A stretch of 32,000 nucleotides of DNA, taken from the NCBI GenBank assembly GCA_024275415.1, contig JAJRZD010000032.1:25141-57140 (forward strand), given 5' to 3'. The notes beneath the pieces were generated by a model. The model was not told the DNA's origin. It saw only the letters and a list, made by a program, of their open reading frames with translations, and made no database searches. The stretch comes from an archaeon (GTDB taxonomy: Archaea > Asgardarchaeota > Thorarchaeia > Thorarchaeales > Thorarchaeaceae). Both the position numbers and the translations under genes were made by a program. Shown here piece after piece: positions 1-32,000 of the stretch (position 1 is the stretch's first letter; every line of letters starts with the position of its first letter).

Positions 1-2889
1 TGGCAAGGTTGCCATGAAGGCGATGAACCAATCAAAGTATGTCAGGGGTAAGAAATAGAATTCAAAGCCGGGGAGTGCCCCGACGAGGATCTCTTGGGCT
101 AGTGGATTGTACATCAGCAGCAGAAATGCCATTATAATAAGTCCCAGCAACACAACGTATCGGATGATTCCAGGCTCTGAAACAGACTTGTGGAAGGGTA
201 GATTTACCCTTCGAATGATCAAGACCAATGTGCTTTCGAATATCAGTATCATGGTAAGCAGCATCGTTGTTGCTTTTGCTATCTGCAAATCCCAGCCAAA
301 TGGAAGTTGGGCTTCTTGACTATAATAGCCAGTCAAATTCTCAGGTACCAGCGCTAGTGGGTCACCCGGCTGAGCATTGAATGCAAGTGCGTACACTATC
401 GAAGTGCCAATGACCATTAGAAAAACACCAACACCCATGAGTACAGCAAGCCGTCTCGTGATAATGTCCTCACTATCTCGCGGCTTCTCCTCCATCGCCC
501 GCGGTGAAGTCTTATCAAAGACAAGTGCCAATCCAGGGAACGAATGGGTTGTTGCCACGAGAAGAAGGCTTTGCCAAGAAGTCAGCATGTTGAATCCGGC
601 AGGAAGGAGAAACAGAGCTCCGAAGAATATGATGGACTCAAAGAGATTGATGGCGATGTAGAAGAAGACCATCATCCGGATCTTGTTGAAGAGACCTCGA
701 CCCTCGTGTACCCCTGTGACGATAGACGCAAAACTATCATCCGTGATGACAATATCTGCTGCTTCCTTTGCTACGTCAGTGCCTGTTATTCCCATCGCAA
801 TCCCGGCATCACTCATAGCTAGGGCAAGAGCATCGTTCACGCCATCCCCAGTCATTGCCACGACCTTGTTCTGATCCTGATATCGTTCGACAATCAGCTG
901 CTTGTGCTCAGGGTTTACTCTGGCAAAGACATTCACGCGCTGGAAGTCATCCTCGGAAATCTCAGCAATCTGGGAACCTTCGACAGCAAGCGAGCCGGGT
1001 CTGTAAATGTTCAGGTTACTGGCTATTGTCTTTGCTGTGGCGGCTGCATCCCCAGTTATCATAATAACATTGATGCCAGCACTGTGGCACTCGCAAACCG
1101 CTTCCTTGACACCCTCTCGCGGTGGATCCACAATACATGCGAAACCTAGGTAGACGAGGTCTCGTTCAACTTGGTCACGTGCGTCAGGGACTGATGGCAG
1201 AACGTCCATCGTACGGTATGCAAGGGAAATGACTCTATAGCCTTTCGCTGCGAACCCATTGGTGAGGTCGGCAATCTGACCGCGGACATCATCCGTCAAC
1301 AATGTCAGCGTTCCCGAATTGTTGTAATGAGTGCACCGAGGAAGCATGACTTCCGTTGCCCCTTTGGTAAAGACGATGTACTTTGAGTCGTGATTACAAA
1401 TCTTCGACATGCGTTTGTATTGAGAGTCGAAGGGAAATTCCATCTCGACCTGATAGTTATCCTTCACTTCATTCTCGTTCATTCCACTCTTTCGAAATAG
1501 GGTCAAAAGAGCTGCATCTGTAGGATCGCCAACAGCCATATAGACTGGCCCTTGGTCGGGGATGTCCTTTGTGATGATGGCAGAGTCATTATTGATTCCG
1601 CCACATAGTAGCAACAGTCGCAAGTTGTCATATGACTCGACGCCCAGCAATGGTGATGTGTTTTCAGTGTCCAGATTGTCGTATGTGACATCATCACCTA
1701 ATCTCAGGATCTCTCCATCAGGTTCGTAACCATTGCCCGTGACAGTATAAAGGTGATTCATATCCCAGATGTATTTCACAGTCATCTCATTTTTAGTCAT
1801 GGTGCCAGTCTTATCCGAGCAGATGACACTGACACGCCCCAAGCTCTCAACAGCAGAGAGGTCTCTGATGATGACACCTTGCTTTGCCATCGCAAGAACG
1901 CCTGTAAGGAGGACTATCGTGGTAAGCAACGGGATGTTGATGGGCATTATCGTCATTGCTTTAGTGATTCCCGCCGTTATCGTGTCAATAATCTCATCGA
2001 AGCTCTCGACTCCAGGGGAACCAGTGAAGAAGGGGCCGAGAAAGGTGGCCCATGAGATGGAAACGAGCATCAGAAAGACTGCTGCAATCCCAAGGAGTTT
2101 CGCCAAGAGGTTCACTTTCTTTCTGAGGGGGATATCGCCAGTATTAAGCTCCTCGAGTGTGCCCTGTATCTTGCCAATCTCTGTCGCTCCGCCTGTTGTA
2201 GTTGCCACCACTTTTGCGGTTCCTGTGGCGATATACGTACCTAGGAATACCATGTTGTGCATGTCTGTCAGGGGTGCATCTGCATCAACCACCACATGAG
2301 CGTCCTTTGTGACGGGGACGCTCTCACCAGTCAAAGATGCCTCATTTGCGGCCAGATTCGAACATTGGATGATCCGACCGTCAACGGGGATTCGGTCACC
2401 CTGTTCGAGCTTAAGGATGTCGCCAGGCACAATATCTGCTGGATCGACTTTCATTTCTTCACCATCGCGGATGACCCGTGCATCACCAGCAGAGAGCTTC
2501 TCCAAAGCTTCGAGCTTTTTCTGAGCCCTGAATTGCTGGAAGATAGCAACGATACAGTTCACGGCCACAATGACCAGCCAGAACATAGCCTGTTCGAATT
2601 GAGAATTCTCCGTTGGGAACATAAAGGCGAGGAAAACAAGTGCAAATGAGCTCAGCAGATAGATGGTAATCAACCAGTTCAGTATTGGGGCAAGGTAAAC
2701 CTTCCAGAATGAGCCTTTGACCTTTGGAATGACATTCGGTCCATATCTGTGAAGCCTTTGTTCGACCTCGTCCTGAGAAAGACCATAATCGGGGTTCACT
2801 GACAAGACCTGCAGGACTTGATCCGGGGTCATAGCGTGATACTGTTGAGTCTTTGGTTCGAGTTCGATGGTGGATTGCTGCTCGGACAA
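1..2889 (-). CDS. P-type ATPase, P2 (SERCA/PacL-like) scaffold with atypical ion-binding residues; 3' end runs off the window (>=963 aa)
   Basis: Hand translation of the minus strand: TTG start at 2889 after GAGGT; N-term GLSQDEVEQRLHRYGPN; A-domain EASLTGES; phosphorylation motif ICSDKTGT (D at 1813-1815); N-domain FPFDSQYKRM and KGATE; DPPR, MITGD, MTGDGVNDA; hydrophobic C-terminal helices. Frame is open to position 1, which is probably why the ORF track lacks it. Confidence 0.96.
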   Translation of the reverse strand, partial: MSEQQSTIELEPKTQQYHAMTPDQVLQVLSVNPDYGLSQDEVEQRLHRYGPNVIPKVKGSFWKVYLAPILNWLITIYLLSSFALVFLAFMFPTENSQFEQAMFWLVIVAVNCIVAIFQQFRAQKKLEALEKLSAGDARVIRDGEEMKVDPADIVPGDILKLEQGDRIPVDGRIIQCSNLAANEASLTGESVPVTKDAHVVVDADAPLTDMHNMVFLGTYIATGTAKVVATTTGGATEIGKIQGTLEELNTGDIPLRKKVNLLAKLLGIAAVFLMLVSISWATFLGPFFTGSPGVESFDEIIDTITAGITKAMTIMPINIPLLTTIVLLTGVLAMAKQGVIIRDLSAVESLGRVSVICSDKTGTMTKNEMTVKYIWDMNHLYTVTGNGYEPDGEILRLGDDVTYDNLDTENTSPLLGVESYDNLRLLLLCGGINNDSAIITKDIPDQGPVYMAVGDPTDAALLTLFRKSGMNENEVKDNYQVEMEFPFDSQYKRMSKICNHDSKYIVFTKGATEVMLPRCTHYNNSGTLTLLTDDVRGQIADLTNGFAAKGYRVISLAYRTMDVLPSVPDARDQVERDLVYLGFACIVDPPREGVKEAVCECHSAGINVIMITGDAAATAKTIASNLNIYRPGSLAVEGSQIAEISEDDFQRVNVFARVNPEHKQLIVERYQDQNKVVAMTGDGVNDALALAMSDAGIAMGITGTDVAKEAADIVITDDSFASIVTGVHEGRGLFNKIRMMVFFYIAINLFESIIFFGALFLLPAGFNMLTSWQSLLLVATTHSFPGLALVFDKTSPRAMEEKPRDSEDIITRRLAVLMGVGVFLMVIGTSIVYALAFNAQPGDPLALVPENLTGYYSQEAQLPFGWDLQIAKATTMLLTMILIFESTLVLIIRRVNLPFHKSVSEPGIIRYVVLLGLIIMAFLLLMYNPLAQEILVGALPGFEFYFLPLTYFDWFIAFMATLP

Positions 2890-3084
2890 TGTCAGAACCT
2901 CTTCATAGGTGCATTGGATGAAAGGACTTGCCATTGATAAATGAACTTGTAATCTATAGTCCATCCCACCGCTTTCATTTGTATTTGGTAAGCTCCATCC
3001 CTTTTGAAGATTATTGATACCATTTTCGACAGGTTCTTGTGCTTTTGCTATTGGTCAAGTAGTACCTTAACAAGAGGTGTCAAG

Positions 3085-5058
3085 ATGGCTATCTATTATG
3101 ATATTCCACCAGAGCAAACGAAGTCCAGCGGTAGCAGGAAAATAGTAGCAGTGATCATCATCATCCTGATTCTCCTATCGACGGGAGTCATGGCCCTTTT
3201 CCAATTCATTCCCTCATTTGGGTCATTTTTTAACAGTGGTTCGGTTCGTGTAGCAGTCATCGATTCAGGACTTGACCAAGACGTTTCTATTTCAGGGAGG
3301 GTGGTTGCAGAACAAAGTTTCATACTGCCACAATATGGGTACAACATCACAGACTCGTCCACATCAGATTCAAACCCTGATGATGGTGCTGGAAATAACG
3401 TAAGACATGGCACTATGGTGACAAGAGCCCTGCTCCAAAATAGTGACAGTGCCCAGATTGTGGTTGCGAAAGTCATCGATTCATCGGGCCACGCTACTGC
3501 CAGTGCATTGGTAGCTGCAATATACTGGGCGGTGGAACAGAATAGCACAGTAATCAACATGAGCCTCGGTACAAGTCCGTCCTTCGGCGATCCCTTACAA
3601 GATGCAGTAGAGTATGCATTCTCGAAAGGCGTCATCGTCGTTTCAGCTGCAGGAAATGAGGGGGAGAACGGCATAGCAGGGAATAGCATCAGCTCACCAA
3701 GTGTCTTCTCGAAGGTCATCTCCGTAGCTGCATTGGACGAGAAAGGGGAACCTGCGTATTATTCAAGTTGGGGACCAACTGCCGATAGGAGCATGAAGCC
3801 AGACATCGCGATAGAGGGCTTCTTCGAGACCTCCAGTGCGATCTATTATGGAACGAGTTTTGCGGCACCAAGGGTCTCAGCCTATGTGGCCGAACTTGTG
3901 GCGTATTGCCAGAGCAAAGGGTACGAATATACACCGGGATTGATAATGGCAGCCTTATTCGAGGGAGCGACACCTCTGAACTATCCAGAATACATTGTTG
4001 GTGCTGGAAAGGCAAACTTGCAACAGTCAATGAACATCATAGATGCAGCATCAATCCAAGATGGCCTTCCACGTCTCATCAGTGTGGACACAAGTGGGTT
4101 GCCTCTTGACTTCGAAACTCTATTCCAAGGCGATAACTACACATTCAACGTTGAGATAACCACATCGACAGTATCAGAGGTCACAATCTCACTCATTGAC
4201 ATTGCTGAGGGAATCGTCGAGATACCAAGTCCGGTGAACATCAATCAAGTCGGAACCGTTCCTCTCTCGATCCATGTCCCGATGAGCTCGTCGCCAATCA
4301 GCGGGATGGTGTTTATCGAGGATGCATACTCGAATGCCACAGTGAGGGTTGAAATCACTCCTCAAGTAGCGGTAGCAAGGATAGCGTTCGATATCACGCA
4401 CACCCCTTGGAATATAGATACTACCTATGGACAATTCAAGGAGCTTTACATCCAACTCACAGAACAGGACATATCTGTAACGGAGATTAGGGACAGGAAC
4501 CTTCTGACGGCAGAGTACCTCTCTCTCTTTGATGCCGTATTCATGCTAGACCCAAGTGCATGGGACAGAAATGACACAGACTACAATAATCCAACGGCAT
4601 TCTCCATTCCTTTCACTCCTGATGAGATTGATGCTTATGAGGAGTATTTCCTCGATGGCGGTGGAATCTTCATAACTGCACTGGATAACAGTAGCTTGGA
4701 CATTGAATCGTTGAACGGGTTCCTAGAATGGACTGGCGCATCTGTTGCATATGATTCTGTCCCAGGAACTATTGGTGTGGTTGAGATAACTGACGTGGTC
4801 GCACATCCGATAACAGTAGGTGTTAGCTCCTTTGACTATCTTGGAGCGTCCATTTTGACTAATTCAAGTTACACCACACTTGGAAGATTCAGTGGGAAGA
4901 CTGTCCTAGCAGCCTTTGAGGGAACATCTGGTGGACGGATCGTCATCACAGGAACCAACTTCTTCATCGATAACTGGGGAATGAAGGGGATGTACGGATC
5001 ACCTGATGATGATGTTCTCTCACTACGAATCGGTCTATGGTTAACTGGACTCATGTGA
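3085..5058 (+). CDS. Membrane-anchored S8 (subtilisin-like) serine protease with C-terminal GATase1-like/DUF4350-like domain
   Basis: Catalytic triad motifs VAVIDSG, RHGTMV, YYGTSFAAP and oxyanion AAGNEG; N-terminal hydrophobic helix IVAVIIIILILLSTGVMALF. Start set at ATG 3085 (GAGGTG upstream) rather than 3004. Confidence 0.93.
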   Translation: MAIYYDIPPEQTKSSGSRKIVAVIIIILILLSTGVMALFQFIPSFGSFFNSGSVRVAVIDSGLDQDVSISGRVVAEQSFILPQYGYNITDSSTSDSNPDDGAGNNVRHGTMVTRALLQNSDSAQIVVAKVIDSSGHATASALVAAIYWAVEQNSTVINMSLGTSPSFGDPLQDAVEYAFSKGVIVVSAAGNEGENGIAGNSISSPSVFSKVISVAALDEKGEPAYYSSWGPTADRSMKPDIAIEGFFETSSAIYYGTSFAAPRVSAYVAELVAYCQSKGYEYTPGLIMAALFEGATPLNYPEYIVGAGKANLQQSMNIIDAASIQDGLPRLISVDTSGLPLDFETLFQGDNYTFNVEITTSTVSEVTISLIDIAEGIVEIPSPVNINQVGTVPLSIHVPMSSSPISGMVFIEDAYSNATVRVEITPQVAVARIAFDITHTPWNIDTTYGQFKELYIQLTEQDISVTEIRDRNLLTAEYLSLFDAVFMLDPSAWDRNDTDYNNPTAFSIPFTPDEIDAYEEYFLDGGGIFITALDNSSLDIESLNGFLEWTGASVAYDSVPGTIGVVEITDVVAHPITVGVSSFDYLGASILTNSSYTTLGRFSGKTVLAAFEGTSGGRIVITGTNFFIDNWGMKGMYGSPDDDVLSLRIGLWLTGLM

Positions 5059-5284: not shown

Positions 5285-6526
5285 TTGCTCAACAAAGGAG
5301 ATTGCATTGACTTGGCCAAGATAACAAAGGCGTCCTACGGTGTTTTGATTGCATGTACAATCTCTCACTTCATGAATCATCTCTATACAGGTGCGCTCTC
5401 TCCTTTCTTGCCCCTTATCCGTGATGAGCTGGGACTTACGCTGACTGAGGCAGGTGTCCTCACAAGTGCAGTCATCGTCACAATGACCTCTGCCCACCTA
5501 GTTGTGGGATATATGGGTGATAAAGGATGGCGGGATATTTTGATCTCGGTGAGCGTCATACTATCTGCTGTTGTGATGCTAATAGAGAGTTTCGCCACAA
5601 GTTTTTTGTTCCTAGTAGGAACACAGGTAGCATTGGGTTTTGCGGTGTCAGGATATCATCCCTCTGCATTCCCAGCAATCTCAAAGAAGTTCCCCCGAAA
5701 TGCAAGAGCCAAGGCCATTGGGTTCAATGCTGCTGGGGGTCTTGTGGGAATGGCAATCACACCATTCCTCGGAGTATTTCTCTTGGTAGTCCTTGGTGGT
5801 TGGAGAAACCCGCTATTTACACTGGGCTTGATGGGGGTTGCATTGTTCATCCCGATCCTGTTGTTGATGAGGTATGCAGACAACCAAGCGAAAAATGATT
5901 TCGAGAACGGGGAGGTGGAGGACGAAGGCCCACAAGTTGGATGGACACGGAATTATTTCATAGCAATCATATTTATGGGTCTCAGAAGCATCCCGTTCCG
6001 TTCGACGACATTGATGATGCCGATATACCTTGTGGACAGTTACGGATACGAGCCAGTCTGGGCGGGCTCACTGACCGCAATCATGTTGATGGCAGGTCTG
6101 TTTGGAGAATTAGTGTCTGCACCCATATCAGACCGGTCAGGAAAACGCGTACCGTACATGTTCCTCTCTGTCGTCAGCATGGTGCCCTTGTTCCTAATGC
6201 TGAACTTGGCACTTGAGCCACTACCGCTACTTCTTGTCCTCATAGGTATCGGATTCATCTATTTCTTTGGAGTACCTCCAGGTCAGGCATTCGAAACTGA
6301 GGTGACGCCCACTGAGAAACAAGGACTGGCATTCGGATTGCTATTCTCAGTAGGTGCGATTCCAGGGTCTCTTGCACCAGCCATCTTTGGCTGGATTGGC
6401 GATGTGTTCGGACTGGCATCCTCAATTCTGTTCCTGGTGATAGTGTGTGCGATTGCGTCCGTCGTAGCCCTGTTCCTGAAAGACACACCACTTGAGCATC
6501 ATGTGGTTATTGCAATGGAGGAGTAG
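5285..6526 (+). CDS. MFS transporter
   Basis: 413 aa with about 12 hydrophobic segments; motif A-like GYMGDKGWR and ISDRSGKR in the two halves; YHP motif and NHLY N-terminal pattern typical of Fsr-like MFS. Start uncertain. Confidence 0.9.
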   Translation: MLNKGDCIDLAKITKASYGVLIACTISHFMNHLYTGALSPFLPLIRDELGLTLTEAGVLTSAVIVTMTSAHLVVGYMGDKGWRDILISVSVILSAVVMLIESFATSFLFLVGTQVALGFAVSGYHPSAFPAISKKFPRNARAKAIGFNAAGGLVGMAITPFLGVFLLVVLGGWRNPLFTLGLMGVALFIPILLLMRYADNQAKNDFENGEVEDEGPQVGWTRNYFIAIIFMGLRSIPFRSTTLMMPIYLVDSYGYEPVWAGSLTAIMLMAGLFGELVSAPISDRSGKRVPYMFLSVVSMVPLFLMLNLALEPLPLLLVLIGIGFIYFFGVPPGQAFETEVTPTEKQGLAFGLLFSVGAIPGSLAPAIFGWIGDVFGLASSILFLVIVCAIASVVALFLKDTPLEHHVVIAMEE

Positions 6527-22640: not shown

Positions 22641-23519
22641 TTACACCTCAATCTCACTTATTATCTTGAAATCGACATTCTCGAAGACCACAGACTTCAG
22701 CAACTCGAGCCAGCGGTCACGAAAATCACGACGGTTTGCCTGCATACCATAAGCAGGAACATCCAAACGTCTTCCAACTTCCTTTGGAGACAATGCTCCA
22801 GGCAAATCCTGCTTGTTTGCTATAGCGACTGCTCGTGCATAAGGGAGCTCAGCCTTGAGAACAGGATAGGCAACACGCTTTGTCCAATCAAGGTTCTCTT
22901 GCGTTGAATCTGTGACTATCACAACAACACTACCGGCACGTATGATTTTCCCCCATTCTTGGACAAAACGATCCTGTCCGCCCAGATCGAACATGCTGAA
23001 AACATATGGGTCGAAATCAGCTTTCAAGAATGCCTTATCCCCAAAGAACGTGGGCACATATTCCTGAGGTGGTCCCTGTGACGGCAGTGTGGCCAGCTCA
23101 AGAAGTGTTGTCTTTCCGGTACCACCATGTCCAGCAAGGCAGACTTTCACAGGAATCTTGCTCACGATGCTTCGGAAACTGGGTTGGAACGGGCTGAAAT
23201 CGGTGGATTTCCACTCATCGCTCTCCAGAATACCCTCATAGGCAGTCATGAATTTCGAAACCAAGTTCATCATGGCTTCCTCTGCTTTCGAGAGAGATGA
23301 TTGTCTATCCATTGTGATTATGAATTGAGTGTCATGGCTATTCATGTACACATACCTGAAGCGTTCGATTTCCATGCTGTCGATTTTCCATTCGTGTAGT
23401 TTTTTCGCTGAAGATGAAACCAGCATCATGACAGCATTTGAATCAAGATCGTTGTTTGGAACAATAGTGTCTTGAAACAGTGGCTTGCCTTCTTTAAAGA
23501 CATGAAGCTCGCGTATCAT
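22641..23519 (-). CDS. N-terminal longin-like domain fused to an Arf-like small GTPase
   Basis: G1 GHGGTGKT, G2 YVPT, G3 DLGGQ, switch II EW, G4 NKQDL; first ~120 aa show a longin-type strand/helix order (MIRELHVF...RYVYM...FIITMD, then helices). Confidence 0.9.
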   Translation of the reverse strand: MIRELHVFKEGKPLFQDTIVPNNDLDSNAVMMLVSSSAKKLHEWKIDSMEIERFRYVYMNSHDTQFIITMDRQSSLSKAEEAMMNLVSKFMTAYEGILESDEWKSTDFSPFQPSFRSIVSKIPVKVCLAGHGGTGKTTLLELATLPSQGPPQEYVPTFFGDKAFLKADFDPYVFSMFDLGGQDRFVQEWGKIIRAGSVVVIVTDSTQENLDWTKRVAYPVLKAELPYARAVAIANKQDLPGALSPKEVGRRLDVPAYGMQANRRDFRDRWLELLKSVVFENVDFKIISEIEV

Positions 23520-23720
23520 AGTTTCTTAGTCCTCCAGATTTATCATACAATATCTTCGAGTGTGATAATGAACATTGGGCAGATTCCCATATGAGCGTAA
23601 TTCGTACCATTGCACTAGCGAAATATGTTTCACAATCTGCTCGTGGACATCATCCTTCAAGTTTCATCATCACTCCGTTTCTTGCAGGTTGAGGGGGACA
23701 ATACCCCCTCGGTTGCAATC

Positions 23721-26700
23721 CTATTCGTCTGCCAAATCATCCTCCTCTATGATGTCTTCATCGTCAGCTGAAACGTCCGTTTCGTCTGATTCGGAGCGCG
23801 CTTCTGCGTCCTCTTCGACATCTAAATCCTCGGGTTCATCAGAGAGTGAGTCTTCGATTTCCTCTTCAAGTTCCTCACTATCCTCCGAGTCTTCTTCTAA
23901 AGACTCAGATTCAGCAGTGTCTTCTTGTTCTGCTATTTCATCATCCTCCTGAGGCTCCGCATCATCGAGAACATCAGAGGCAGTTTCATCCTCAGAGGTG
24001 TCCAGAGTTGGTTCTTCGGGGATTACCTCTTCAGAGGTGTCCTCGGCAACTGTATCATCAGGTTCAGCCTCGTCCATCACTTCATCAACAGTAGGTTCTG
24101 CTGCAGGCTCCTCCGGTTCATCAGGGGATTCCTCGACCTTCTCAGTTTCGATTTTCTGCTCCCCAACATCTGCCTCTGATTCAACAGCCTCAGATACTTC
24201 CGCATCCTCCACTTCAGGAACCTCTGGCTCGGCTTCGATTATTGTGTCAAGCTCGGCCTCTAGCTCGGCCTCGAAGGATGAAACATCATCGGGGAGTGTT
24301 TCTTCGACACCCACATCCTCAAGCGCGTCCAGTTCATCAAGGAGACCTTCAGTGTCATCTAGTGACACATCATAATCCATCTCAGGACCTACTTCGATAA
24401 CAGGAGCTGAAAGGTCGAGTTCTGCCAGTCCGGGTGCCAGAAGCTCTGAAACAATCGAACCCATCGTCTTCACTTGATCAATCTTCGCCGTCTTGCCATC
24501 ACCCATGGCCTTCAATGCCTTGTTGATCTGCTTGATGGCGAATGGAATCTTGTAACGTTTGATTCCAATGTAGGATCCACTTCCGATGGCGAAAAGTCCA
24601 ATCATCAAGAGAATGGTCTGGAACATGGAGAGTGGGATTCTGAAGGAGCCGACGGATAGACCGAACACGGATGTCAGCGCGTCTACAGGTCCAAGTATGT
24701 CTACTGTGGCCTCGGTGATGGTCACAGAGATTACCGTATTGCTGGCGCTGGTGATGTTCGTGTAGAGCGGCGCCTCAATCACTACCTGAATGCTGTAGGC
24801 TGTCGTACTTCGTTCGCCAACCTGCGCACTGACTACACTTGCATAGTATCGCTCGTTCTCCTCATCGTAGAAGAGACCGTCACCTAGACTGAAAGTCAGT
24901 TGTGAGTTCACAGTGAGTTCTGCACGTGTCACCATTGAAGGAGTGATAGACCTCTGTCGTCCACCGACTGTATCAATGAACTTGAACCAGATGATTCCAG
25001 TCTGCCCTTCCTCGATATAGAAGCCGCTCGTTTCAGTCACGAGCTGTGTCGTCCCTACAAGAACGAGTTTTGGCTGGATGGTGACGGTAGTGTAGTTCTG
25101 CAGTTCAGCCGTTATGTTCAGGGTGAATATCCCAGGCACACGGTCATCACCAATCTCTTGAGGATTGAATGTCAAACGGTATACTTGAGTGCCTGCCTGA
25201 TAGCTGGCATAGAATATTTGGCCTCCGTACTCCATCGAGATGGTTGCTCCAGTCAAGACACCTGTCAGCGAAACAGAATCATCATCGACACTGTATGTCA
25301 GGATGATTTCGCCTGTATCCTCGCCATAGACGAGGGTATAGGTTCCCTGATCGGACTCAAGAGCAACATCTACAGGATTGATGACCAAATCGAGCACTCC
25401 ATTCGGAATGGTGAAGTTCTCGTTATCGACCACTATCAACAAGGTCCTGTCGCCAGCAGGAATCTCCATCGTGTCAACGGTCACATGATAGTCAACACTA
25501 GTATCCCGATAGGCAAGATAGCCAACGATGGATGTGCCCTGCCAGCTGTAGTACACCGTCGTATATTCAAGAGCCAGCAGCCCTCCACCGTGGGTATTGA
25601 ATACCCTGACTTGCAATTCGAACTCCTGCGACCAAGTCCACTCTAAGGAGGTGGGAGCATCAATGATTATCGTTCCCGAAATGGGCTCTATGACCACTGA
25701 AGTGGTGTTAGTGCTATCGACATAGTTTGGCAACTCGTAGGTGAAGGTCAAATCGTATGGATCCGCAGAGGCGGGGAACCAGTTGTCCGAGTCAAAGCTG
25801 AGAGTGAAGGTTCCGTTGTTGTGATTGACCATCTGTAGCGAGTAGGCCCCATAACTTACTGTAATAGTCGCCCCTAACCAGATATATCCTCCATGAAGTG
25901 CGTCGTAGAGATGAGCCTTGATGGCAATGGGGTCACTCCAATTGACAGCCCCAATGGAGTCGATTACTAATGAGGCATCGGTTTCAAGAACCAGCATGAT
26001 GACTGTGGTCAGGTCGTGCTCCTGATACCCATTCCTCATCAGCTCGATTGTGATTACATAAACTGAGCCTTGGACATTGGCATTCATCCCAAGGAGCTTG
26101 GTATCCACAGTGAGTGTGTACCAGCCTCCGCCTTCGTTGACGACATCAGTAATCGGAATGTCCAGTGGGATAAGAGTGTAGGTTTCTGATTCAGCATAGG
26201 TGATTGGCAAGTTATCAAGGGTGTTGTTCCAGTAAAACCGTACATCGAATACATCTGCGTAGAACACCTCGAAATACTGCTGTTCAAGTACGACCTCATT
26301 AGGCACTGCATCAATGCGCACGAAGAAGGTTATCTGGTCGGCAGTCCCTCCCGTAATCGTTGCAGTAACAACAATCTCGTAGAGCTGATCTTGCGGTACT
26401 GCATCGTAAGCGTTCAGGGTGACATTGTATATGCCGCCCGAGTAACCACTTAGAGTGCCACTCTCATCCACGACCGACTCGACAAACCAGCTGTATGATA
26501 CTGTCGCTCCTGTCACAGGAGTATTGATCCTAGACTGATCCCAGAGCGTCAGCTCGATAGTGAAATTACGAGTCCAATACACAATGAGCGGATTCTCAAT
26601 AGAGCCGAATTCGCTCTGAATCAGGAGCGGGACATTCACTGTGATTGTCAGGTCGATTTCACCATTCACATGATTGTCCTTGATAAGCTGGAGGCGTAAG

Positions 26701-29700
26701 ACCCATGTCGATGCTTCCACTTCTGTGCTTACAGTGATTCGGTAGATGCCTCCGCCAAGCTCCAGAAGCGCTACACTATCAGTCCAATTGCTGGAGAAAG
26801 TCGCGCCAGTAAGCCCAACACTATCCGAAACCCGTGAGAAGTCCACATCAAAGACCGCGGGCGATAACCAATCAATCTGGACTGTATCTGAGGTGATAGC
26901 AGTGAGGGTGGTTGGAGCCGGAGAAACTGTGATGAAGCTCGCAGGGCTTGTTATGGTCGCTGTGGCAGACCCGTAGTTGGCCTTCGAACAAGTGACACTG
27001 ATGTTCCATGAACCTACGGGAACAATATCCCTTGAGAATGTATAGGTCAGAACGCCACCAGAAACCGAAAGGGTCCTTGTGACATTGAGATACGACATTC
27101 CTGCATCCGTGTACCATCGGATAACGACTTGCACATTAGACAGTGTGGGTACGGTAGTGTTTCCTGCGAATCCGTATTCGAACTGGAAATCAGTGGTTGC
27201 CGGATCCCATGTATAATCATTGGTTGAAACTAGTGTCACCTGCATAGGAATCTCGATAATCGTCACTCCGACAATGAATGTCTGGTTGATATAGTTCCTT
27301 TTCTGAAGAGTAAGTGTAATCGAGTACACGCCTGTGTCAAGTCCATTGAGGACAGAGGGGAGAATCTGGTACAGGTGTGCACTCACTCCCAGCGTCCCAG
27401 ACCTGAGCTCGGTCGCACCAGACTTCACAGTATAGTTGAAGACATTCAGACCAGTCACATTCACACCATTTGTGGAATCGTATAACCAATAGGAATGGGT
27501 GCTGTGGTTACCATATTGCTCAGTATAGGATGAATCGCTTATTCCCAGACTGGTTTCAGCGGGATTCACTGTCAAGTAGATGGTTATTGTATCAGGATCG
27601 TCATATCCGGTGGTATGAGCGTTGATTACAATCGTGTAAGGTGTTTCAGACACATTTAGTTTCCACAGATCGGTGTCAACAATGATTGTGTAGTTCACAG
27701 CTGTGTCTTGGACAACATAATACTCTGTCGCCTGAGACCAGTAACCCCAGCCAATAGGCGTCGAACCCATGTATATCGTGTAATTCACCCATGTCGTGCC
27801 ATCAATATTTATGACTGATGTTGTGCTTGGACCGTCCCTATCATAATAGCCCACCACAAAAGATGCGTTTCTACCCCATTTTGCTGTCAAGTATGAAACA
27901 GTAGAGTTCAATTCGGTATAAAAGTCTGCATAGGCCGGTACATTAATTGTGATGTTATTGACGAACCACCAGTCCTTATCGGCCTTCACAAGTATTTCCG
28001 TGAGAAAGCCATTACTGGCATCGCCAGCGATGACTGTAACGTTGTAGGACACCGAATAAGGTGATGACATGTTGGCATGAATGACAAAGAAGGTGATTTG
28101 TCCTGTACTGTTGGTGCTACCTGTGGCAACCAAATTGCCACCCTTTAGAGTGATATTCACTTGAGCGCCTTGTACAAAGGTGCTAGGACCTGTCATTACA
28201 CGGAAGTTCGCACGAGAAATAGGTAATTCGACCGTATAAGATGTTTCACCTTGCAAACTTGTCAGGAATTTCGTATTATTTCGGGCAATTGGTGTTTCAG
28301 AATAGCTGTCGTCCTTCCACACATCCAAGTTCCAAGTCCCATTTACGATGCGATAGAAGTTATAGACGCCATCTGCATCAGTCGTGCGTGTGAGTGTGTA
28401 CACGTTCTCATTCTTGGTATTGTTAATCTTGACCGTTGCACCTTCGATGGGCTGGTCATCCCAGCTCATCACAGTGACACGAAGTGTGATCAATGGCACT
28501 TCGAATGTATACGAGTAGGGCCCTGTATCGAAGTCCGCTTCATTTCGTGACCAATTGCCAAATTGTAGCATTTGATCGTACTGATACGATGAAACGTTTC
28601 CATCATAACGAATGAAGAACGAGTATGCATCTTTAGGCAGCCGATAGAATGATGCCACACCAGATGCGTCTGTTGTCTGCTGGTCTATGTAGGCACTCCC
28701 ATCAGCGCTCGGTCCAGTCACATTGGAGGCCCGGATGCGTGTGGTTTCATCTGCGGTCTGTGCCATGGGATTGCCCATGAGATCCTGCAAGGTGATGTCA
28801 AAGGAGCCCATTGGGAGGATTACATCAATGGGTGTGACAGACCCTGTGATTGCGTGGTTCGAGGTGTTGCGAACCCAAATATGGGTATATGAGGTGTACA
28901 ACCATGAGGCTGCATCTATGACTGCGCGTACCTCATAGGTGGCATTGCCTAGGCCTTCAAAAACAACAAGTCCATTCGAATCGGTTATGCCTGTGCGATT
29001 TCGCCCCTGCTCGTCCAGCCAGATAGTGGAAGTTGTTGCATTGTAGAGGGTCACCTGCACACCCTCAACTACTGTGCCATCAAGGTCTTTGACTGTGATA
29101 TCGAATTCGAAAAGATGTCGTTCAGAGCCGTATGTAATACTAACTCCAGCCTGATCCTGGTCAGGAGAGTACGCAGGGACTGCCCAGCCATAACCTGTAT
29201 CATAGATTGGGTCGTAGGGAGCAGTTGTCGAGAACCTACCCACATCGACTACTCCGATGCTAGCATTCGATGTTATGTGATAGAGTGTCATCCCAGAGGA
29301 TACTGGTCTGAATGATGCCATTCCGCCAGCGGGGATTTGGAGTGTGCCACCATTGTATCCGCTTATTTTGACCTCGGCATTCTCAAGTGCGACAATCATG
29401 AACTTGTAACCATTGATGCCCCAAAGCTTGTAATTAGTGCCATAACGATGACCTGTGATAGTAGGAACCCAGTCACCAGCATCGGTCACAGCCGTAGGAT
29501 TGTAGAGACCTTCAACCATGAGCATTGAACCAGTATCGCCCTTGATGTGAAGGACATCCTCGGGATCCGTATCGCTTGCGACACCTCGTGCAATAAGGTA
29601 AGAGCTATTTGCTGCAATGTTCTGAGTGCCTACATATGTCCAGGCGCCCCCGTTGGAACTTCGCCACCAGCTGATGTCAACGGCGGTACTACCTAGGTTC

Positions 29701-30956
29701 GTGACTCTGGTGTAGTCGCCGCTGTTACCCATATCAATAGTATAGAATTCCTCACCTGCAAGATTGCCATTCACATCGGGATAGAATGCCCAGATGTCAC
29801 GGGAGTAGGCTGCGTCAACGTCCCCACATCTTCCAGTGATTGGCTTTGTGGCGTTTGCAATCTTGATGTCGTTATATACGATGTCCCATTTGTAAATATA
29901 CTCGCCTTCATCGAGGATGGCGGGCCATGTGTTCACCAGAGAGTAGTTGTTGAACCTCCAATTGGTATCCGCAGACCCATCCGCATTGGTAATCCAGACC
30001 TGAGTGTCATTCTCTTGTGCTAGAACCCAGTACTTCCCTTCGTTTCGAGCGTCGAAACCCTCAACGCCACCAAGGATGATTTCCGTTCCAGAACCTGAGC
30101 CCAGTTGGTTTGTCACTGGGAACCAGTCGTTCATAGCCGCATTTGAGCCTTCGTCACCTTGACCCATGTGCACATACATTGGGTAGTTGGAGTAAACAGC
30201 ATAATACCCGGTGAACAATGTGTAAGAGTATACATCGGGCTCGTAGCGTGCTGCTTGATATTGAGCGAGTGTTCCAGAAGGAACATTTGATGGATAGACG
30301 CTTCCGCTAGTCCCATCCCATTTGCCATCCAGATTGCGGGGATCGTCCCAAGTCTGGGAAGCAGAATCGTACATCTCAATGAGGTAATTATTGTTATCGT
30401 AGAAAGAAACGAGGCTGATGAGAGAGAATGTATAGGATTTGTAGGTGAATGGATAGAAGTTTGGATAGCTTACTGTTCCAACAGGCTCCTTGGCATAGTA
30501 GATGTAATAGTTGGTCTCAGTCGAGCCCGAGGAAACATTCACCAAGAAGGATATCCGAGTCGAGAGGATGTAATTCCCAGTGGCATCATATGTTGTATTC
30601 CAGACTTGGAATGGTAAGAGTGTCCATCCGGGGTTGTCATAGTACGCGACACGTATTGATCCCGCATAACAGTTGCCCTCTGTAAATGTGAGATACAGAT
30701 GCACGGGCGAATTGGTCTTACTCGCTTCAGATGCGTCAAGAGTGAAATTGAAGTACCGCCGATAGATGAAGGTACTATTCCACCATGTCGCTTCGTCTTG
30801 GAACCCGGCCAACTCGACCCCACTGTTCTTGACCTGAAGGGGGGTGGCGTCAGTAGGCTCCGGTGCTGGTTTGTTCATGGTGGATGTGTTTGTCATTGGC
30901 AATAGCAGGAACGTGACAAACGCCGCAAACAGGATAAACATGATTCGACGATTCAT
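23721..30956 (-). CDS. Giant (2411 aa) type I cell-surface protein: signal/anchor, DUF2341-like, IgGFc-binding-like, CarboxypepD_reg-like and Ig-like repeats, TM, acidic cytoplasmic tail
   Basis: Start reassigned to ATG 30956 (GGAGGT 8 nt upstream). Hydrophobic N-term; WWNSTFIYRR...YYIYY; four TT(D/N)xxGxxxF beta-sandwich units; about 9 units ending in a (Y/W)x(I/L)xxxxxxxNY-type strand; TM at about 24561-24630 followed by KRYK; many N-x-S/T sequons. Confidence 0.92.
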   Translation of the reverse strand: MNRRIMFILFAAFVTFLLLPMTNTSTMNKPAPEPTDATPLQVKNSGVELAGFQDEATWWNSTFIYRRYFNFTLDASEASKTNSPVHLYLTFTEGNCYAGSIRVAYYDNPGWTLLPFQVWNTTYDATGNYILSTRISFLVNVSSGSTETNYYIYYAKEPVGTVSYPNFYPFTYKSYTFSLISLVSFYDNNNYLIEMYDSASQTWDDPRNLDGKWDGTSGSVYPSNVPSGTLAQYQAARYEPDVYSYTLFTGYYAVYSNYPMYVHMGQGDEGSNAAMNDWFPVTNQLGSGSGTEIILGGVEGFDARNEGKYWVLAQENDTQVWITNADGSADTNWRFNNYSLVNTWPAILDEGEYIYKWDIVYNDIKIANATKPITGRCGDVDAAYSRDIWAFYPDVNGNLAGEEFYTIDMGNSGDYTRVTNLGSTAVDISWWRSSNGGAWTYVGTQNIAANSSYLIARGVASDTDPEDVLHIKGDTGSMLMVEGLYNPTAVTDAGDWVPTITGHRYGTNYKLWGINGYKFMIVALENAEVKISGYNGGTLQIPAGGMASFRPVSSGMTLYHITSNASIGVVDVGRFSTTAPYDPIYDTGYGWAVPAYSPDQDQAGVSITYGSERHLFEFDITVKDLDGTVVEGVQVTLYNATTSTIWLDEQGRNRTGITDSNGLVVFEGLGNATYEVRAVIDAASWLYTSYTHIWVRNTSNHAITGSVTPIDVILPMGSFDITLQDLMGNPMAQTADETTRIRASNVTGPSADGSAYIDQQTTDASGVASFYRLPKDAYSFFIRYDGNVSSYQYDQMLQFGNWSRNEADFDTGPYSYTFEVPLITLRVTVMSWDDQPIEGATVKINNTKNENVYTLTRTTDADGVYNFYRIVNGTWNLDVWKDDSYSETPIARNNTKFLTSLQGETSYTVELPISRANFRVMTGPSTFVQGAQVNITLKGGNLVATGSTNSTGQITFFVIHANMSSPYSVSYNVTVIAGDASNGFLTEILVKADKDWWFVNNITINVPAYADFYTELNSTVSYLTAKWGRNASFVVGYYDRDGPSTTSVINIDGTTWVNYTIYMGSTPIGWGYWSQATEYYVVQDTAVNYTIIVDTDLWKLNVSETPYTIVINAHTTGYDDPDTITIYLTVNPAETSLGISDSSYTEQYGNHSTHSYWLYDSTNGVNVTGLNVFNYTVKSGATELRSGTLGVSAHLYQILPSVLNGLDTGVYSITLTLQKRNYINQTFIVGVTIIEIPMQVTLVSTNDYTWDPATTDFQFEYGFAGNTTVPTLSNVQVVIRWYTDAGMSYLNVTRTLSVSGGVLTYTFSRDIVPVGSWNISVTCSKANYGSATATITSPASFITVSPAPTTLTAITSDTVQIDWLSPAVFDVDFSRVSDSVGLTGATFSSNWTDSVALLELGGGIYRITVSTEVEASTWVLRLQLIKDNHVNGEIDLTITVNVPLLIQSEFGSIENPLIVYWTRNFTIELTLWDQSRINTPVTGATVSYSWFVESVVDESGTLSGYSGGIYNVTLNAYDAVPQDQLYEIVVTATITGGTADQITFFVRIDAVPNEVVLEQQYFEVFYADVFDVRFYWNNTLDNLPITYAESETYTLIPLDIPITDVVNEGGGWYTLTVDTKLLGMNANVQGSVYVITIELMRNGYQEHDLTTVIMLVLETDASLVIDSIGAVNWSDPIAIKAHLYDALHGGYIWLGATITVSYGAYSLQMVNHNNGTFTLSFDSDNWFPASADPYDLTFTYELPNYVDSTNTTSVVIEPISGTIIIDAPTSLEWTWSQEFELQVRVFNTHGGGLLALEYTTVYYSWQGTSIVGYLAYRDTSVDYHVTVDTMEIPAGDRTLLIVVDNENFTIPNGVLDLVINPVDVALESDQGTYTLVYGEDTGEIILTYSVDDDSVSLTGVLTGATISMEYGGQIFYASYQAGTQVYRLTFNPQEIGDDRVPGIFTLNITAELQNYTTVTIQPKLVLVGTTQLVTETSGFYIEEGQTGIIWFKFIDTVGGRQRSITPSMVTRAELTVNSQLTFSLGDGLFYDEENERYYASVVSAQVGERSTTAYSIQVVIEAPLYTNITSASNTVISVTITEATVDILGPVDALTSVFGLSVGSFRIPLSMFQTILLMIGLFAIGSGSYIGIKRYKIPFAIKQINKALKAMGDGKTAKIDQVKTMGSIVSELLAPGLAELDLSAPVIEVGPEMDYDVSLDDTEGLLDELDALEDVGVEETLPDDVSSFEAELEAELDTIIEAEPEVPEVEDAEVSEAVESEADVGEQKIETEKVEESPDEPEEPAAEPTVDEVMDEAEPDDTVAEDTSEEVIPEEPTLDTSEDETASDVLDDAEPQEDDEIAEQEDTAESESLEEDSEDSEELEEEIEDSLSDEPEDLDVEEDAEARSESDETDVSADDEDIIEEDDLADE
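23724..24400 (-). repeat. Low-complexity Asp/Glu-rich coding region (protein tail)
   Basis: Translation is dominated by E and D (e.g. EEDSEDSEELEEEIEDSLSDEPEDLDVEED); no exact DNA tandem unit is evident. Confidence 0.8.
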
Positions 30957-30960
30957 TCTA

Positions 30961-32000
30961 CTAGACCTCCATGATGACATCCTTGTTGCTCGGGTGGAAA
31001 TTCCTCAGAGTTTCAAGATAGTGAATGGCCTGACGAGCGGGAATATCTCCGTCATTGTAAAGGTCAACAGTGCGAGAGATCAACCATTCGGGATAGACCG
31101 TGACGACCTCAGGATCGCATTTCAAAAGGACATGCTCATTCCCGCCTTCATCCTTGTATTTGGAGATGATGTTGGCTTTCTCAAGTTTCCGGAGTTGCTT
31201 TTTGATCTGACTTTTCGAGATGTCAAGCTTTGCTTCAAGAGTGGCGGTCAGCGTGGGGCCTCTCCTGAGCTCGCTTATGATATCGTGTGCATCGAAATCA
31301 AGAATGAACTGAGATAGCTCCTGAGCCTCGAACCAAAGGGTTTCAGACAGGTCTCTACGGAGGCGTGCCACATACTCGCGGTGGTATTTCCTTGCTGTGC
31401 GGAGATACTCATCGGCAATCTCCTTTGAAACCTTTCCTGTACGAACCGCCCTCGCTGTTTCTCGGGATATGCCTCGCAGGATGAAGATAGCTCGGGTCAG
31501 ATAGATGACCTCTGACGAAAGGCCCTCAACCCATCCAGTGGCGACAATGCCCATCTTCACGAGAGGTCTCAGAATCATGTCAACGTCAATCTTCTTGCCA
31601 ACCTCCTCGAAGATGAGTTGTTCTAAGTTGGTTGATTGTACCGTACCATCCTTCATAAGTGTCTGAAGAATCGCACGACGCACTGGGTCGTTGACGACAG
31701 ACGCCTGACGCTGTTCGGGTGTCATGTGAGTGTACCGGGATATCTGTTTGTACAACTTGGGCACGAGCGAGGTATATGCATCACCTTCGGCATTCAAGAA
31801 AATCTGAGTGGCAATCTCAGGCAATGCATCCTTGTAAGCGTCAGGATCCTCGTCAGTCCCCAGCACGAGGAACACCATGGAAGGCAGCCCCTTCAGGTGC
31901 ATGTTCAAACCACCATAATACACAGCCAGCTTGAAGTCGGGAAATGGTAGAGAGGAAAATCCGGGTCTTTGTGCCTCTTCTGTTTCGCCCAGCGTTGCAA
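30961..32000 (-). CDS. Longin/uDENN-like domain + two winged-helix domains; 5' end lies outside the window
   Basis: Frame is open from 31923 to the edge (...ATLGETEEAQRPGFSSLPFPDFKLAVYYGG...SMVFLVLG...PDAYKDALPEIATQIF). WH1 DPVRRAILQTLMKDG...ILRPLVKMGIV; WH2 LEAKLDISKSQIKKQLRKLEKANII. Confidence 0.82.
   Translation of the reverse strand, partial: ATLGETEEAQRPGFSSLPFPDFKLAVYYGGLNMHLKGLPSMVFLVLGTDEDPDAYKDALPEIATQIFLNAEGDAYTSLVPKLYKQISRYTHMTPEQRQASVVNDPVRRAILQTLMKDGTVQSTNLEQLIFEEVGKKIDVDMILRPLVKMGIVATGWVEGLSSEVIYLTRAIFILRGISRETARAVRTGKVSKEIADEYLRTARKYHREYVARLRRDLSETLWFEAQELSQFILDFDAHDIISELRRGPTLTATLEAKLDISKSQIKKQLRKLEKANIISKYKDEGGNEHVLLKCDPEVVTVYPEWLISRTVDLYNDGDIPARQAIHYLETLRNFHPSNKDVIMEV

Follow-up and report, generated by a model that had tools for sequence, protein, structure and literature searches.

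The subfamilies of P-type ATPases are defined by the chemistry of their transport sites, and new types of site are few, the uncharacterised groups of TCDB aside. In SERCA, Ca2+ site I is formed by N768, E771, T799, D800, and E908, and site II by backbone carbonyls of transmembrane helix 4 (TM4) together with E309, N796, and D800. Here we analyze a P-type ATPase gene at the left edge of a 32,000 nucleotide (nt) stretch of DNA from an archaeon of the Thorarchaeaceae (Asgardarchaeota; assembly GCA_024275415.1, contig JAJRZD010000032.1, positions 25,141 to 57,140 of the forward strand), referred to below as the window. Judging from aligned sequences, the encoded protein belongs to an uncharacterised archaeal branch that groups with the PEGLP-type (P2A-like) Ca2+ pumps, and this clade is coherent, strongly conserved, and widespread in archaea. 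In the alignments, all three Ca2+ site-II side chains (E309, N796, and D800) are replaced in the clade. Of site I, the clade retains N768, E771, and E908, with stricter conservation than canonical relatives show at these positions. We favor, with a probability of roughly 60%, the reading that this is a catalytically competent pump which would transport one small cation other than Ca2+ through a remodelled mid-membrane site.

The best curated and structural matches of the protein are SERCA, SPCA, and LMCA1 (E ~1e-120 by sequence). With LMCA1 (6zhf), SERCA1a, and SPCA1 (PMR1), it has in common the domain set, the motifs TGES, DKTGT, and GDGVND, a set of ten TM helices, a distance of 43 residues between the TM4 Pro and the phosphorylated Asp, and the equivalents of N768, E771, and E908. 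It differs from them by Ile in place of E309, Asn in place of G310, Val in place of N796, His in place of D800, Pro in place of Q56, Gln in place of E109, and Leu in place of the Pro that follows GDGVNDA, and it misses the P2A score cut-offs. The gene and the features on which the comparison rests are as follows.

Window 1-2964, minus strand: P-type ATPase gene; full open reading frame (ORF) of 1007 amino acids (P0002), G000:C8:25081-28104.
Window 2686-2688, minus strand: Pro93 in TM1; canonical pumps mostly have Gln there.
Window 2533-2535, minus strand: Gln144, where TM2 ends on the cytoplasmic side; the residue is always Glu in canonical pumps.
Window 2320-2331, minus strand: TGES dephosphorylation motif of the A domain, residues 212-215, from the sequence.
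Window 1960-1962, minus strand: Lys335 in the outer half of TM4; Lys or Arg in the Thor-type subclade only.
Window 1930-1944, minus strand: TM4 motif P341-I342-N343-I344-P345 in the unwound part of TM4, from the HMMER alignment and the AlphaFold2 (AF2) model.
Window 1801-1815, minus strand: DKTGT phosphorylation motif (D384), invariant in both family alignments.
Window 832-849, minus strand: GDGVND hinge motif, residues 706-711; Leu713 follows where canonical pumps have Pro.
Window 637-648, minus strand: N773...E776 in TM5, the equivalents of SERCA N768 and E771, from HMMER alignments to LMCA1 and ATP12A.
Window 544-558, minus strand: V803...T806-H807 in TM6, with Val at the N796 position and His at the D800 position, from HMMER alignments.
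Window 235-237, minus strand: Glu910 in TM8, the equivalent of SERCA E908, from the family alignments.

The window holds the 5' 98% of the 1007-codon gene, and the last 19 codons with the stop lie outside its left edge (60 nt, G000:C8:25081-25140). Translation may in fact begin at M11 (window 2934), since residues 1-35 show no conservation and are modelled with low confidence (predicted local distance difference test, pLDDT, below 50 in the AF2 model); the database copy of the protein, P0004, has 997 amino acids. A look-up of public sequencing runs that contain the gene listed none, whether of DNA or of RNA. Five Pfam domains were found, all of which pass: E1-E2_ATPase (PF00122), Cation_ATPase (PF13246), Hydrolase (PF00702), Cation_ATPase_N (PF00690), and Cation_ATPase_C (PF00689).

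The minus-strand translation of window 1-2964 contains ...TKAMTIMPINIPLLTTIVL...ICSDKTGT, and P341 of the PINIP motif (codons CCC ATC AAC ATC CCG, window 1944-1930) stands 43 residues before D384, the start of DKTGT, exactly as an earlier sequence-only reading of the window had stated. The placement of an Ile at the E309 position, which that reading had also proposed, is borne out by the HMMER alignment to the solved Listeria Ca2+ pump LMCA1, in which 'mpinip' lies opposite 'ipeals', so that Ile342 occupies the position of E309 and Asn343 that of G310. A sequencing error at 1939-1941 was considered as an alternative source of the Ile and was rejected, because PINIP is unchanged in 121 of 121 homologues (63-100% identity) and because ATC differs from GAA and GAG at all three bases, so that a change to Glu would need three substitutions. 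The Lys six residues before the Pro is indeed present, as K335, but proved to be a feature of a subclade and not of the family: Lys or Arg stands there in 62 of 73 close Thor-type homologues and in only five of 30 family representatives, compared to Leu in 83 of 93 canonical pumps.

For the comparison of the transport sites, 30 clade representatives (33-61% identical to the query) were set against 93 canonical PEGLP relatives, which had been chosen by a Pro-Glu at the 43-residue spacing, and HMMER alignments to LMCA1 and to ATP12A (the non-gastric H,K-ATPase) served to map the positions. The TM4 change is one part of a coordinated rebuild. Residue 342 is Ile, Val, Phe, Trp, or Leu in all 30 representatives (most commonly Ile, 21; Val, 3; Phe, 3; Trp, 2), compared to Glu in 93 of 93 canonical pumps. 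The G310 position has Asn in 27 of 30 representatives and in 100 of the 103 sequences of a larger alignment (N343). In TM6, the N796 position is Tyr, Phe, Val, or Ile in the clade vs. Asn in 90/93 canonical pumps, and the D800 position is His (29/30 representatives and 102/103 sequences) vs. Asp in 87/93. Thus, E309, N796, and D800 correspond to Ile342, Val803, and His807 of the window protein. The adjacent T799 position is variable in the family (Thr in 8/30), with Thr in the window protein (T806), and aromatic residues recur in TM6, namely Tyr or Phe at 801 and 803. The retained positions are N768, with Asn in 26 of 30 representatives; E771 (E776), with Glu in every representative and in 103/103 sequences; and E908 (E910), with Glu in 28/30 and 101/103, compared to Gln in 52 and Glu in 35 of the 93 canonical relatives. 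Toward the cytoplasmic side, the TM2 position that we take to be that of SERCA E109 (Gln144) has Gln in 25/30 clade members vs. Glu in 93/93 canonical pumps, and position 93 in TM1, presumably that of Q56, has Pro in the window protein and Gln in 86/93 canonical pumps. The larger part of this rebuild, that is, the replacement of D800 by His and of N796 by Val, Tyr, or Phe, together with the retention of N768, E771, and E908, had been absent from the sequence-only reading.

The window protein reaches none of the cut-offs of the curated TIGR subfamily models (bits obtained vs. cut-off):

PMR1 type (TIGR01522): 472 vs. 798 bits.
SERCA type (TIGR01116): 424 vs. 703 bits.
P2D: 412 vs. 645 bits.
P2B: 402 vs. 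507 bits.
P2C: 345 vs. 946 bits.
P3A (TIGR01647): 327 vs. 615 bits.
P3B: 312 vs. 611 bits.
P5 (TIGR01657): 222 vs. 618 bits.
P4 (TIGR01652): 99 vs. 431 bits.

Other clade members score 423-514 bits on the P2A models, 114-117 bits on P4, and 198-263 bits on P5; canonical pumps overlap with this P5 range. The same genome also encodes an ordinary P2A-type pump, P0003 (G000:C81:1453-4296, L002), with PEGLP in TM4, NLATDG in TM6, and NFDE in TM5, which obtains 688 and 677 bits on two P2A models and 92 bits on P4. From these scores of clade members against the canonical paralogue, the clade appears to have diverged from the Ca2+ pumps but to have come no closer to P4 or P5.

The protein is a P2A pump by fold and by its tree grouping with the PEGLP pumps, but not by score cut-off or ligands. 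Since a Glu-His-Glu cluster is conserved while the Ca2+-binding residues around it are replaced, residue chemistry makes a small non-Ca2+ ion the likely substrate. The alternative closest to the known relatives is a Ca2+ (or Ca2+/Mn2+) pump with 1:1 stoichiometry, in which only the retained residues of site I would be used. It would explain why the equivalents of N768, E771, T799 (Thr in the window protein), and E908 are present, and the nearest relatives in sequence and fold are Ca2+ pumps. However, D800, which bridges both Ca2+ sites of SERCA, is His in 97% of the members, T799 is not maintained across the family, and site I of SERCA is reached via site II, which is filled here by Ile or Trp and by Tyr, Phe, or Val. 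Furthermore, the known single-site Ca2+ pumps LMCA1 and SPCA keep site II and not site I, both P2A cut-offs are missed, and the genome already has its canonical Ca2+ pump. We therefore regard a Ca2+ pump as improbable.

The window protein has each of the motor motifs TGES, DKTGT, KGA, DPPR, MITGD, and GDGVND, the core residues of which do not vary in the family alignments; within TGES, G213 and E214 are invariant (E214 in 103/103 sequences) and T212 is conserved in at least 90% (102/103). The assignment of the A domain to the P2 type by the sequence-only reading is confirmed by TGES at residues 212-215 and the absence of DGET. The general features of the P-type (E1-E2) superfamily are in place, namely these motifs, the Pfam domains, a score of 266 bits on TIGR01494 (cut-off, 62), and an unwound TM4. 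The protein is thus predicted from its sequence to be a catalytically competent P-type ATPase with an intact motor and ten TM helices. An AF2 model built on the 103-sequence family alignment (mean pLDDT 87, predicted template modelling score 0.81) has ten TM helices, with TM4 unwound at 340-342 and TM6 broken at 807-808; SERCA unwinds its helices in both places to make ion sites. In Foldseek searches with this model, SERCA1a, SERCA2, and SPCA1 rank first over the full length (E ~1e-58, ~28-29% identity), and the top 50 matches are all P2-type, including LMCA1, Na,K-ATPases, and gastric H,K-ATPases (E ~1e-58 to 1e-53, 24-29% identity).

Loss of the classical ligands could also mark a non-transporting or decaying paralogue, for instance a regulatory ATPase, or an assembly or sequencing artefact. 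In line with decay, TM5-10 alone gave no match to PDB sequences at E <= 1e-3, which implies that the membrane core has diverged far; residues of TM5-10 were mapped with longer queries instead. Yet the frame is open over all 1007 codons, the catalytic motifs and mid-membrane polar residues are strongly conserved in over 150 sequences, the most distant at 33% identity, the family is widespread and often present as two intact tandem copies, and PINIP recurs in every one of the 121 homologues. Decay or artefact is thus scarcely credible.

The extent of the clade was defined by the TM4 pattern P-[IVLFWM]-[NS]-[ILF]-[PV], an invariant TM5 Glu, a TM6 His at the D800 position, and a TM8 Glu, together with a working threshold of at least ~1000 bits on a hidden Markov model (HMM) from alignment A1; the window protein carries all of the signature residues. 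On the family HMM, members score at least 1068 bits and canonical pumps at most ~926 bits, with 1331 bits for the window protein and 884 bits for the PEGLP paralogue of its genome. In a search of 1.84 billion cluster representatives, about 40 carried the signature, and PEGLP/NLVTD pumps followed below a sharp boundary. About 90 of 151 sampled Asgard genomes (~60%, counted from the listed matches) have at least one clade member, among them most of the 26 from the family to which the window belongs, and several Asgard families with small genomes have none. The source labels of the members are Thor-, Loki-, Hod-, Odin-, and Helarchaeota, Promethearchaeota, and one Korarchaeota. The deepest branch shares the TM5 Glu and the TM6 His, reads PWSFP in TM4, and carries eight Thermoplasmatota labels, so that the clade is archaeal and not confined to Asgard archaea. 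In a contig scan with an alignment of the basal subclade, which was not a systematic count, the matches listed were mostly canonical PEGLP pumps from unrelated phyla, and among them only one locus, from Promethearchaeota (L032), had the family motif.

Two maximum-likelihood trees (LG+C20, quick search) were built from different taxon samples that comprised the clade, canonical PEGLP pumps, Asgard P3A H+-ATPases, and the P1B pumps of the genome, without P2B, P2C, P2D, P3B, P4, or P5 references. The clade is monophyletic in both (Shimodaira-Hasegawa-like approximate likelihood ratio test, SH-aLRT, 99 and 100) and unites with the canonical PEGLP pumps (SH-aLRT 99 and 98). The Asgard P3A H+-ATPases fall outside this group on long branches, and the P1B pumps form the outgroup. 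The second tree places one canonical PEGLP pair as the sister group of the clade (support 94), which suggests, though without firm resolution, that the Glu at the E309 position was lost secondarily. Matches to TIGR01106 (P2C) were found neither in the 151 Asgard genomes nor in the controls, so that this negative carries no information. No description of the PINIP motif or of the clade was found in the literature on the motif, Asgard P-type ATPases, and FUPA families, a search that did not cover TCDB; a survey of Asgard transporters lists 'putative Ca2+ ATPase' orthologues (PMC7997004).

Two observations on individual members stand apart from these analyses. Tandem pairs of clade members occur in many Asgard genomes (L020-L023; G141:C50, G147:C12, G121:C53, G025:C86). 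The two copies usually come from two subclades, one with PINLP and QHIYIF..VHS and the other with P(I/L)NIP and QWIFL..H, and both have intact catalytic sets; they may reflect subfunctionalisation or a heteromer. The Korarchaeota-labelled member P0128 (L011/L012) nests in the Thor-type subclade in the trees, and an Arf/Ras/Roc small GTPase is encoded on the same contig; either a wrong bin label or a gene transfer may account for this.

The Ile at the E309 position had been taken in the sequence-only reading as a pointer to the P4 lipid flippases and their origin. According to this alternative, the substrate would be large or amphipathic (a lipid, a polyamine, or another organic cation), as for P4 or P5 pumps, and the clade might be a prokaryotic forerunner of the flippases. 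Both groups have a hydrophobic residue behind the TM4 Pro (PISL in P4), Tyr or Phe lines TM6 at 801 and 803, the family occurs in Asgard archaea, and the P4 scores are slightly above the canonical one (99-117 vs. 92 bits). The premise, however, is incomplete, since the Asgard P3A H+-ATPases are also hydrophobic at this position (IPVALP or IPAALP). The scores stay far under the P4 and P5 cut-offs of 431 and 618 bits, and on P5 do not stand out from canonical pumps; the P5 signature PP(E/A)LP is absent, with a single Pro before the Ile in TM4. The A domain has TGES, unlike the DGET of P4, and an invariant TM5 Glu stands where P4 has Lys. P4 pumps are not known to have the TM5 and TM8 Glu residues; the invariant Glu776, with near-invariant Glu910 and His807, speaks for a ligand that is small and polar or charged. 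The top 50 fold matches include no P4 or P5 structure, and the trees place the clade, which is archaeal, with the prokaryotic PEGLP pumps. Members from Thermoplasmatota show that the clade is not tied to the eukaryote stem. Moreover, neither a Cdc50-like (beta-subunit-like) protein nor any other conserved partner was found among the neighbours at 40 surveyed loci from ten Asgard families, a survey that did not extend to a genome-wide Cdc50 search. We hold a P4- or P5-like substrate to be highly improbable, and a bearing of the clade on the origin of lipid flippases is not supported on present evidence, because every test of P4 affinity failed and the Ile on which the idea was built is a P3A trait as well.

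What stood of that reading is the P2 scaffold with a non-standard transport site, based on TGES, the SERCA, SPCA, and LMCA1 matches, and the grouping with PEGLP pumps; the non-standard substrate is a reasonable deduction from it and goes no further. For the small-cation pump that we favor, the following mechanism can be proposed. The bulky residue 342, at which even Trp is tolerated, and residue 803 would fill site II, and Asn343 may cap the free TM4 carbonyls. A single small cation would be handled by the cluster of Glu776, His807, Glu910, and Asn773 in a normal E1/E2 phosphorylation cycle.

Among small cations, H+ would be our tentative first choice, although held with odds well short of even. 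In its favor, by analogy, the P3A proton pumps are the other ion pumps known to be hydrophobic at the E309 position, and they have a single protonatable site; the clade has also lost the polar residues of the entry route, mapped to Q56 and E109, and Glu-His pairs are classic proton relays. H+ would be exported electrogenically, with His807 or the Glu-His pair serving as the proton carrier and the built-in counter-charge, and K/R335 on the outer half of TM4 in the Thor subclade would fit a one-way exit of the proton. As the same genome keeps its ordinary PEGLP/NLATDG pump, Ca2+ export is already covered. The likeness to P3A (TIGR01647; Asgard L014-L019) extends to the P-x-x-x-P of TM4 (IP(V/A)ALP vs. 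PINIP), to TGES, and possibly to a single protonatable site in place of a multi-cation cage. The proton acceptor of P3A pumps is a TM6 Asp at the D800 position, where the clade has His. P3A pumps are also shorter (~815 vs. ~980-1007 amino acids) and form a separate, long-branched group in the trees, and the P3A cut-off is missed.

A transition metal is favored second to H+. In this alternative, a divalent metal (Zn2+, Mn2+, Fe2+, Co2+, Ni2+, or Mg2+) would be bound by E776, E910, H807, N773, and N343, all of which belong to the conserved set, and His, carboxylate, and Asn are the usual membrane ligands of transition metals, as in ZIP, CDF, and P1B-4 (HEGT) proteins. P1B-4 pumps of the HEGT type use His and Glu as intramembrane ligands, an apparent resemblance to the clade. 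P1B pumps differ, however, in having 6-8 TM helices and CPC or SPC in TM4, and those of the same genome are a distant outgroup. With these, the genome already has five P1B-type heavy-metal pump paralogues (contigs C21, C63, C118, and C123), the loss of polar entry-route residues (E109 to Gln and Q56 to Pro, by our own mapping) would be odd for attracting a divalent cation, and no metal regulator or chaperone recurs beside the gene at the surveyed loci. A metal pump is thus possible but on balance unlikely.

Several points weigh against a non-Ca2+ small-cation pump, and against H+ in particular. The substrate is read from residue chemistry alone, and a Glu/Glu/His/Asn cluster suits Zn2+, Mn2+, Fe2+, Co2+, and Ni2+ as well as H+. 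The proximity of E776, H807, E910, and N773 to each other rests on homology to site I of SERCA. Many genomes that have a clade member also encode genuine P3A H+-ATPases (for example, G083, G109, G041, and G012), and a complementary distribution of the two was not seen among the Asgard genomes, so that there is no sign of a replaced proton pump. A functionally informative conserved neighbour was not found across the 40 loci, and the trees carry SH-aLRT support from quick searches only. With these reservations, we consider it slightly better than an even bet that the clade is a new, 'site-I-only' subtype of P-type ATPases whose Glu-His-Glu site carries a substrate new for P2 pumps, either H+, independently of P3A, or a transition metal, and that this subtype is old, being shared by Asgard archaea and Thermoplasmatota.

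At the same 40 loci, no neighbour was shared beyond lineage-level synteny. In the source genome, a 654-amino-acid protein, P0281 (G000:C8 ~23106-25070, minus strand; L009:7966-9930), starts ~10 nt after the stop of the ATPase gene. It has one N-terminal TM helix followed by ~10 winged-helix-like repeats of ~55 residues, with a weak match to the UFL1 domain PF09743. The pair is kept in Thorarchaeota (L010 and four of four sampled loci of the window's own family) and is absent beside members elsewhere; because P0281 is confined to this family (f1), we do not propose it as a pump subunit. Divergent from the ATPase gene lies a gene for a subtilase (Peptidase_S8, 684 amino acids; window 3004-5058, plus strand), followed by one for a major facilitator superfamily (MFS) transporter (window 5285-6526, plus strand), an arrangement also found beside the ATPase gene in another Thorarchaeote (L010). 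In two other Asgard families, the gene directly upstream of that for the pump, in the same orientation (L125:5829-6410, plus strand), encodes a 194-amino-acid protein with a molybdopterin-binding oxidoreductase domain (PF00174), with equivalents of this arrangement at five f12 and two f13 loci.

Farther along the window, positions 22641-23519 (minus strand) encode a 292-amino-acid protein that has a small GTPase domain of the Arf family (PF00025) and is one of the eukaryote-signature proteins typical of Asgard archaea; its gene adjoins two ORFs lacking a Pfam match. A giant ORF of 2419 amino acids (window 23721-30980, minus strand) has one recognisable region, at residues ~832-908, where weak matches to prealbumin-like and Ig-like fold families (CarboxypepD_reg, SpaA, and MG3/MG4) overlap, and probably encodes a surface protein.

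For specialists on P-type ATPases, the main value of the clade is the experiment that it invites: it provides a natural test case for the roles of the E309 and D800 positions, and knowledge of its substrate would show a two-site cation pump turned into a single-site pump by the filling of one site. For the Asgard archaea, the consequences concern annotation. Pipelines label the clade members as 'Ca2+-transporting ATPase' despite the loss of the defining Ca2+ ligands, and identification of the substrate would correct the transporter inventories on which arguments for eukaryote-like Ca2+ signalling in these organisms draw.

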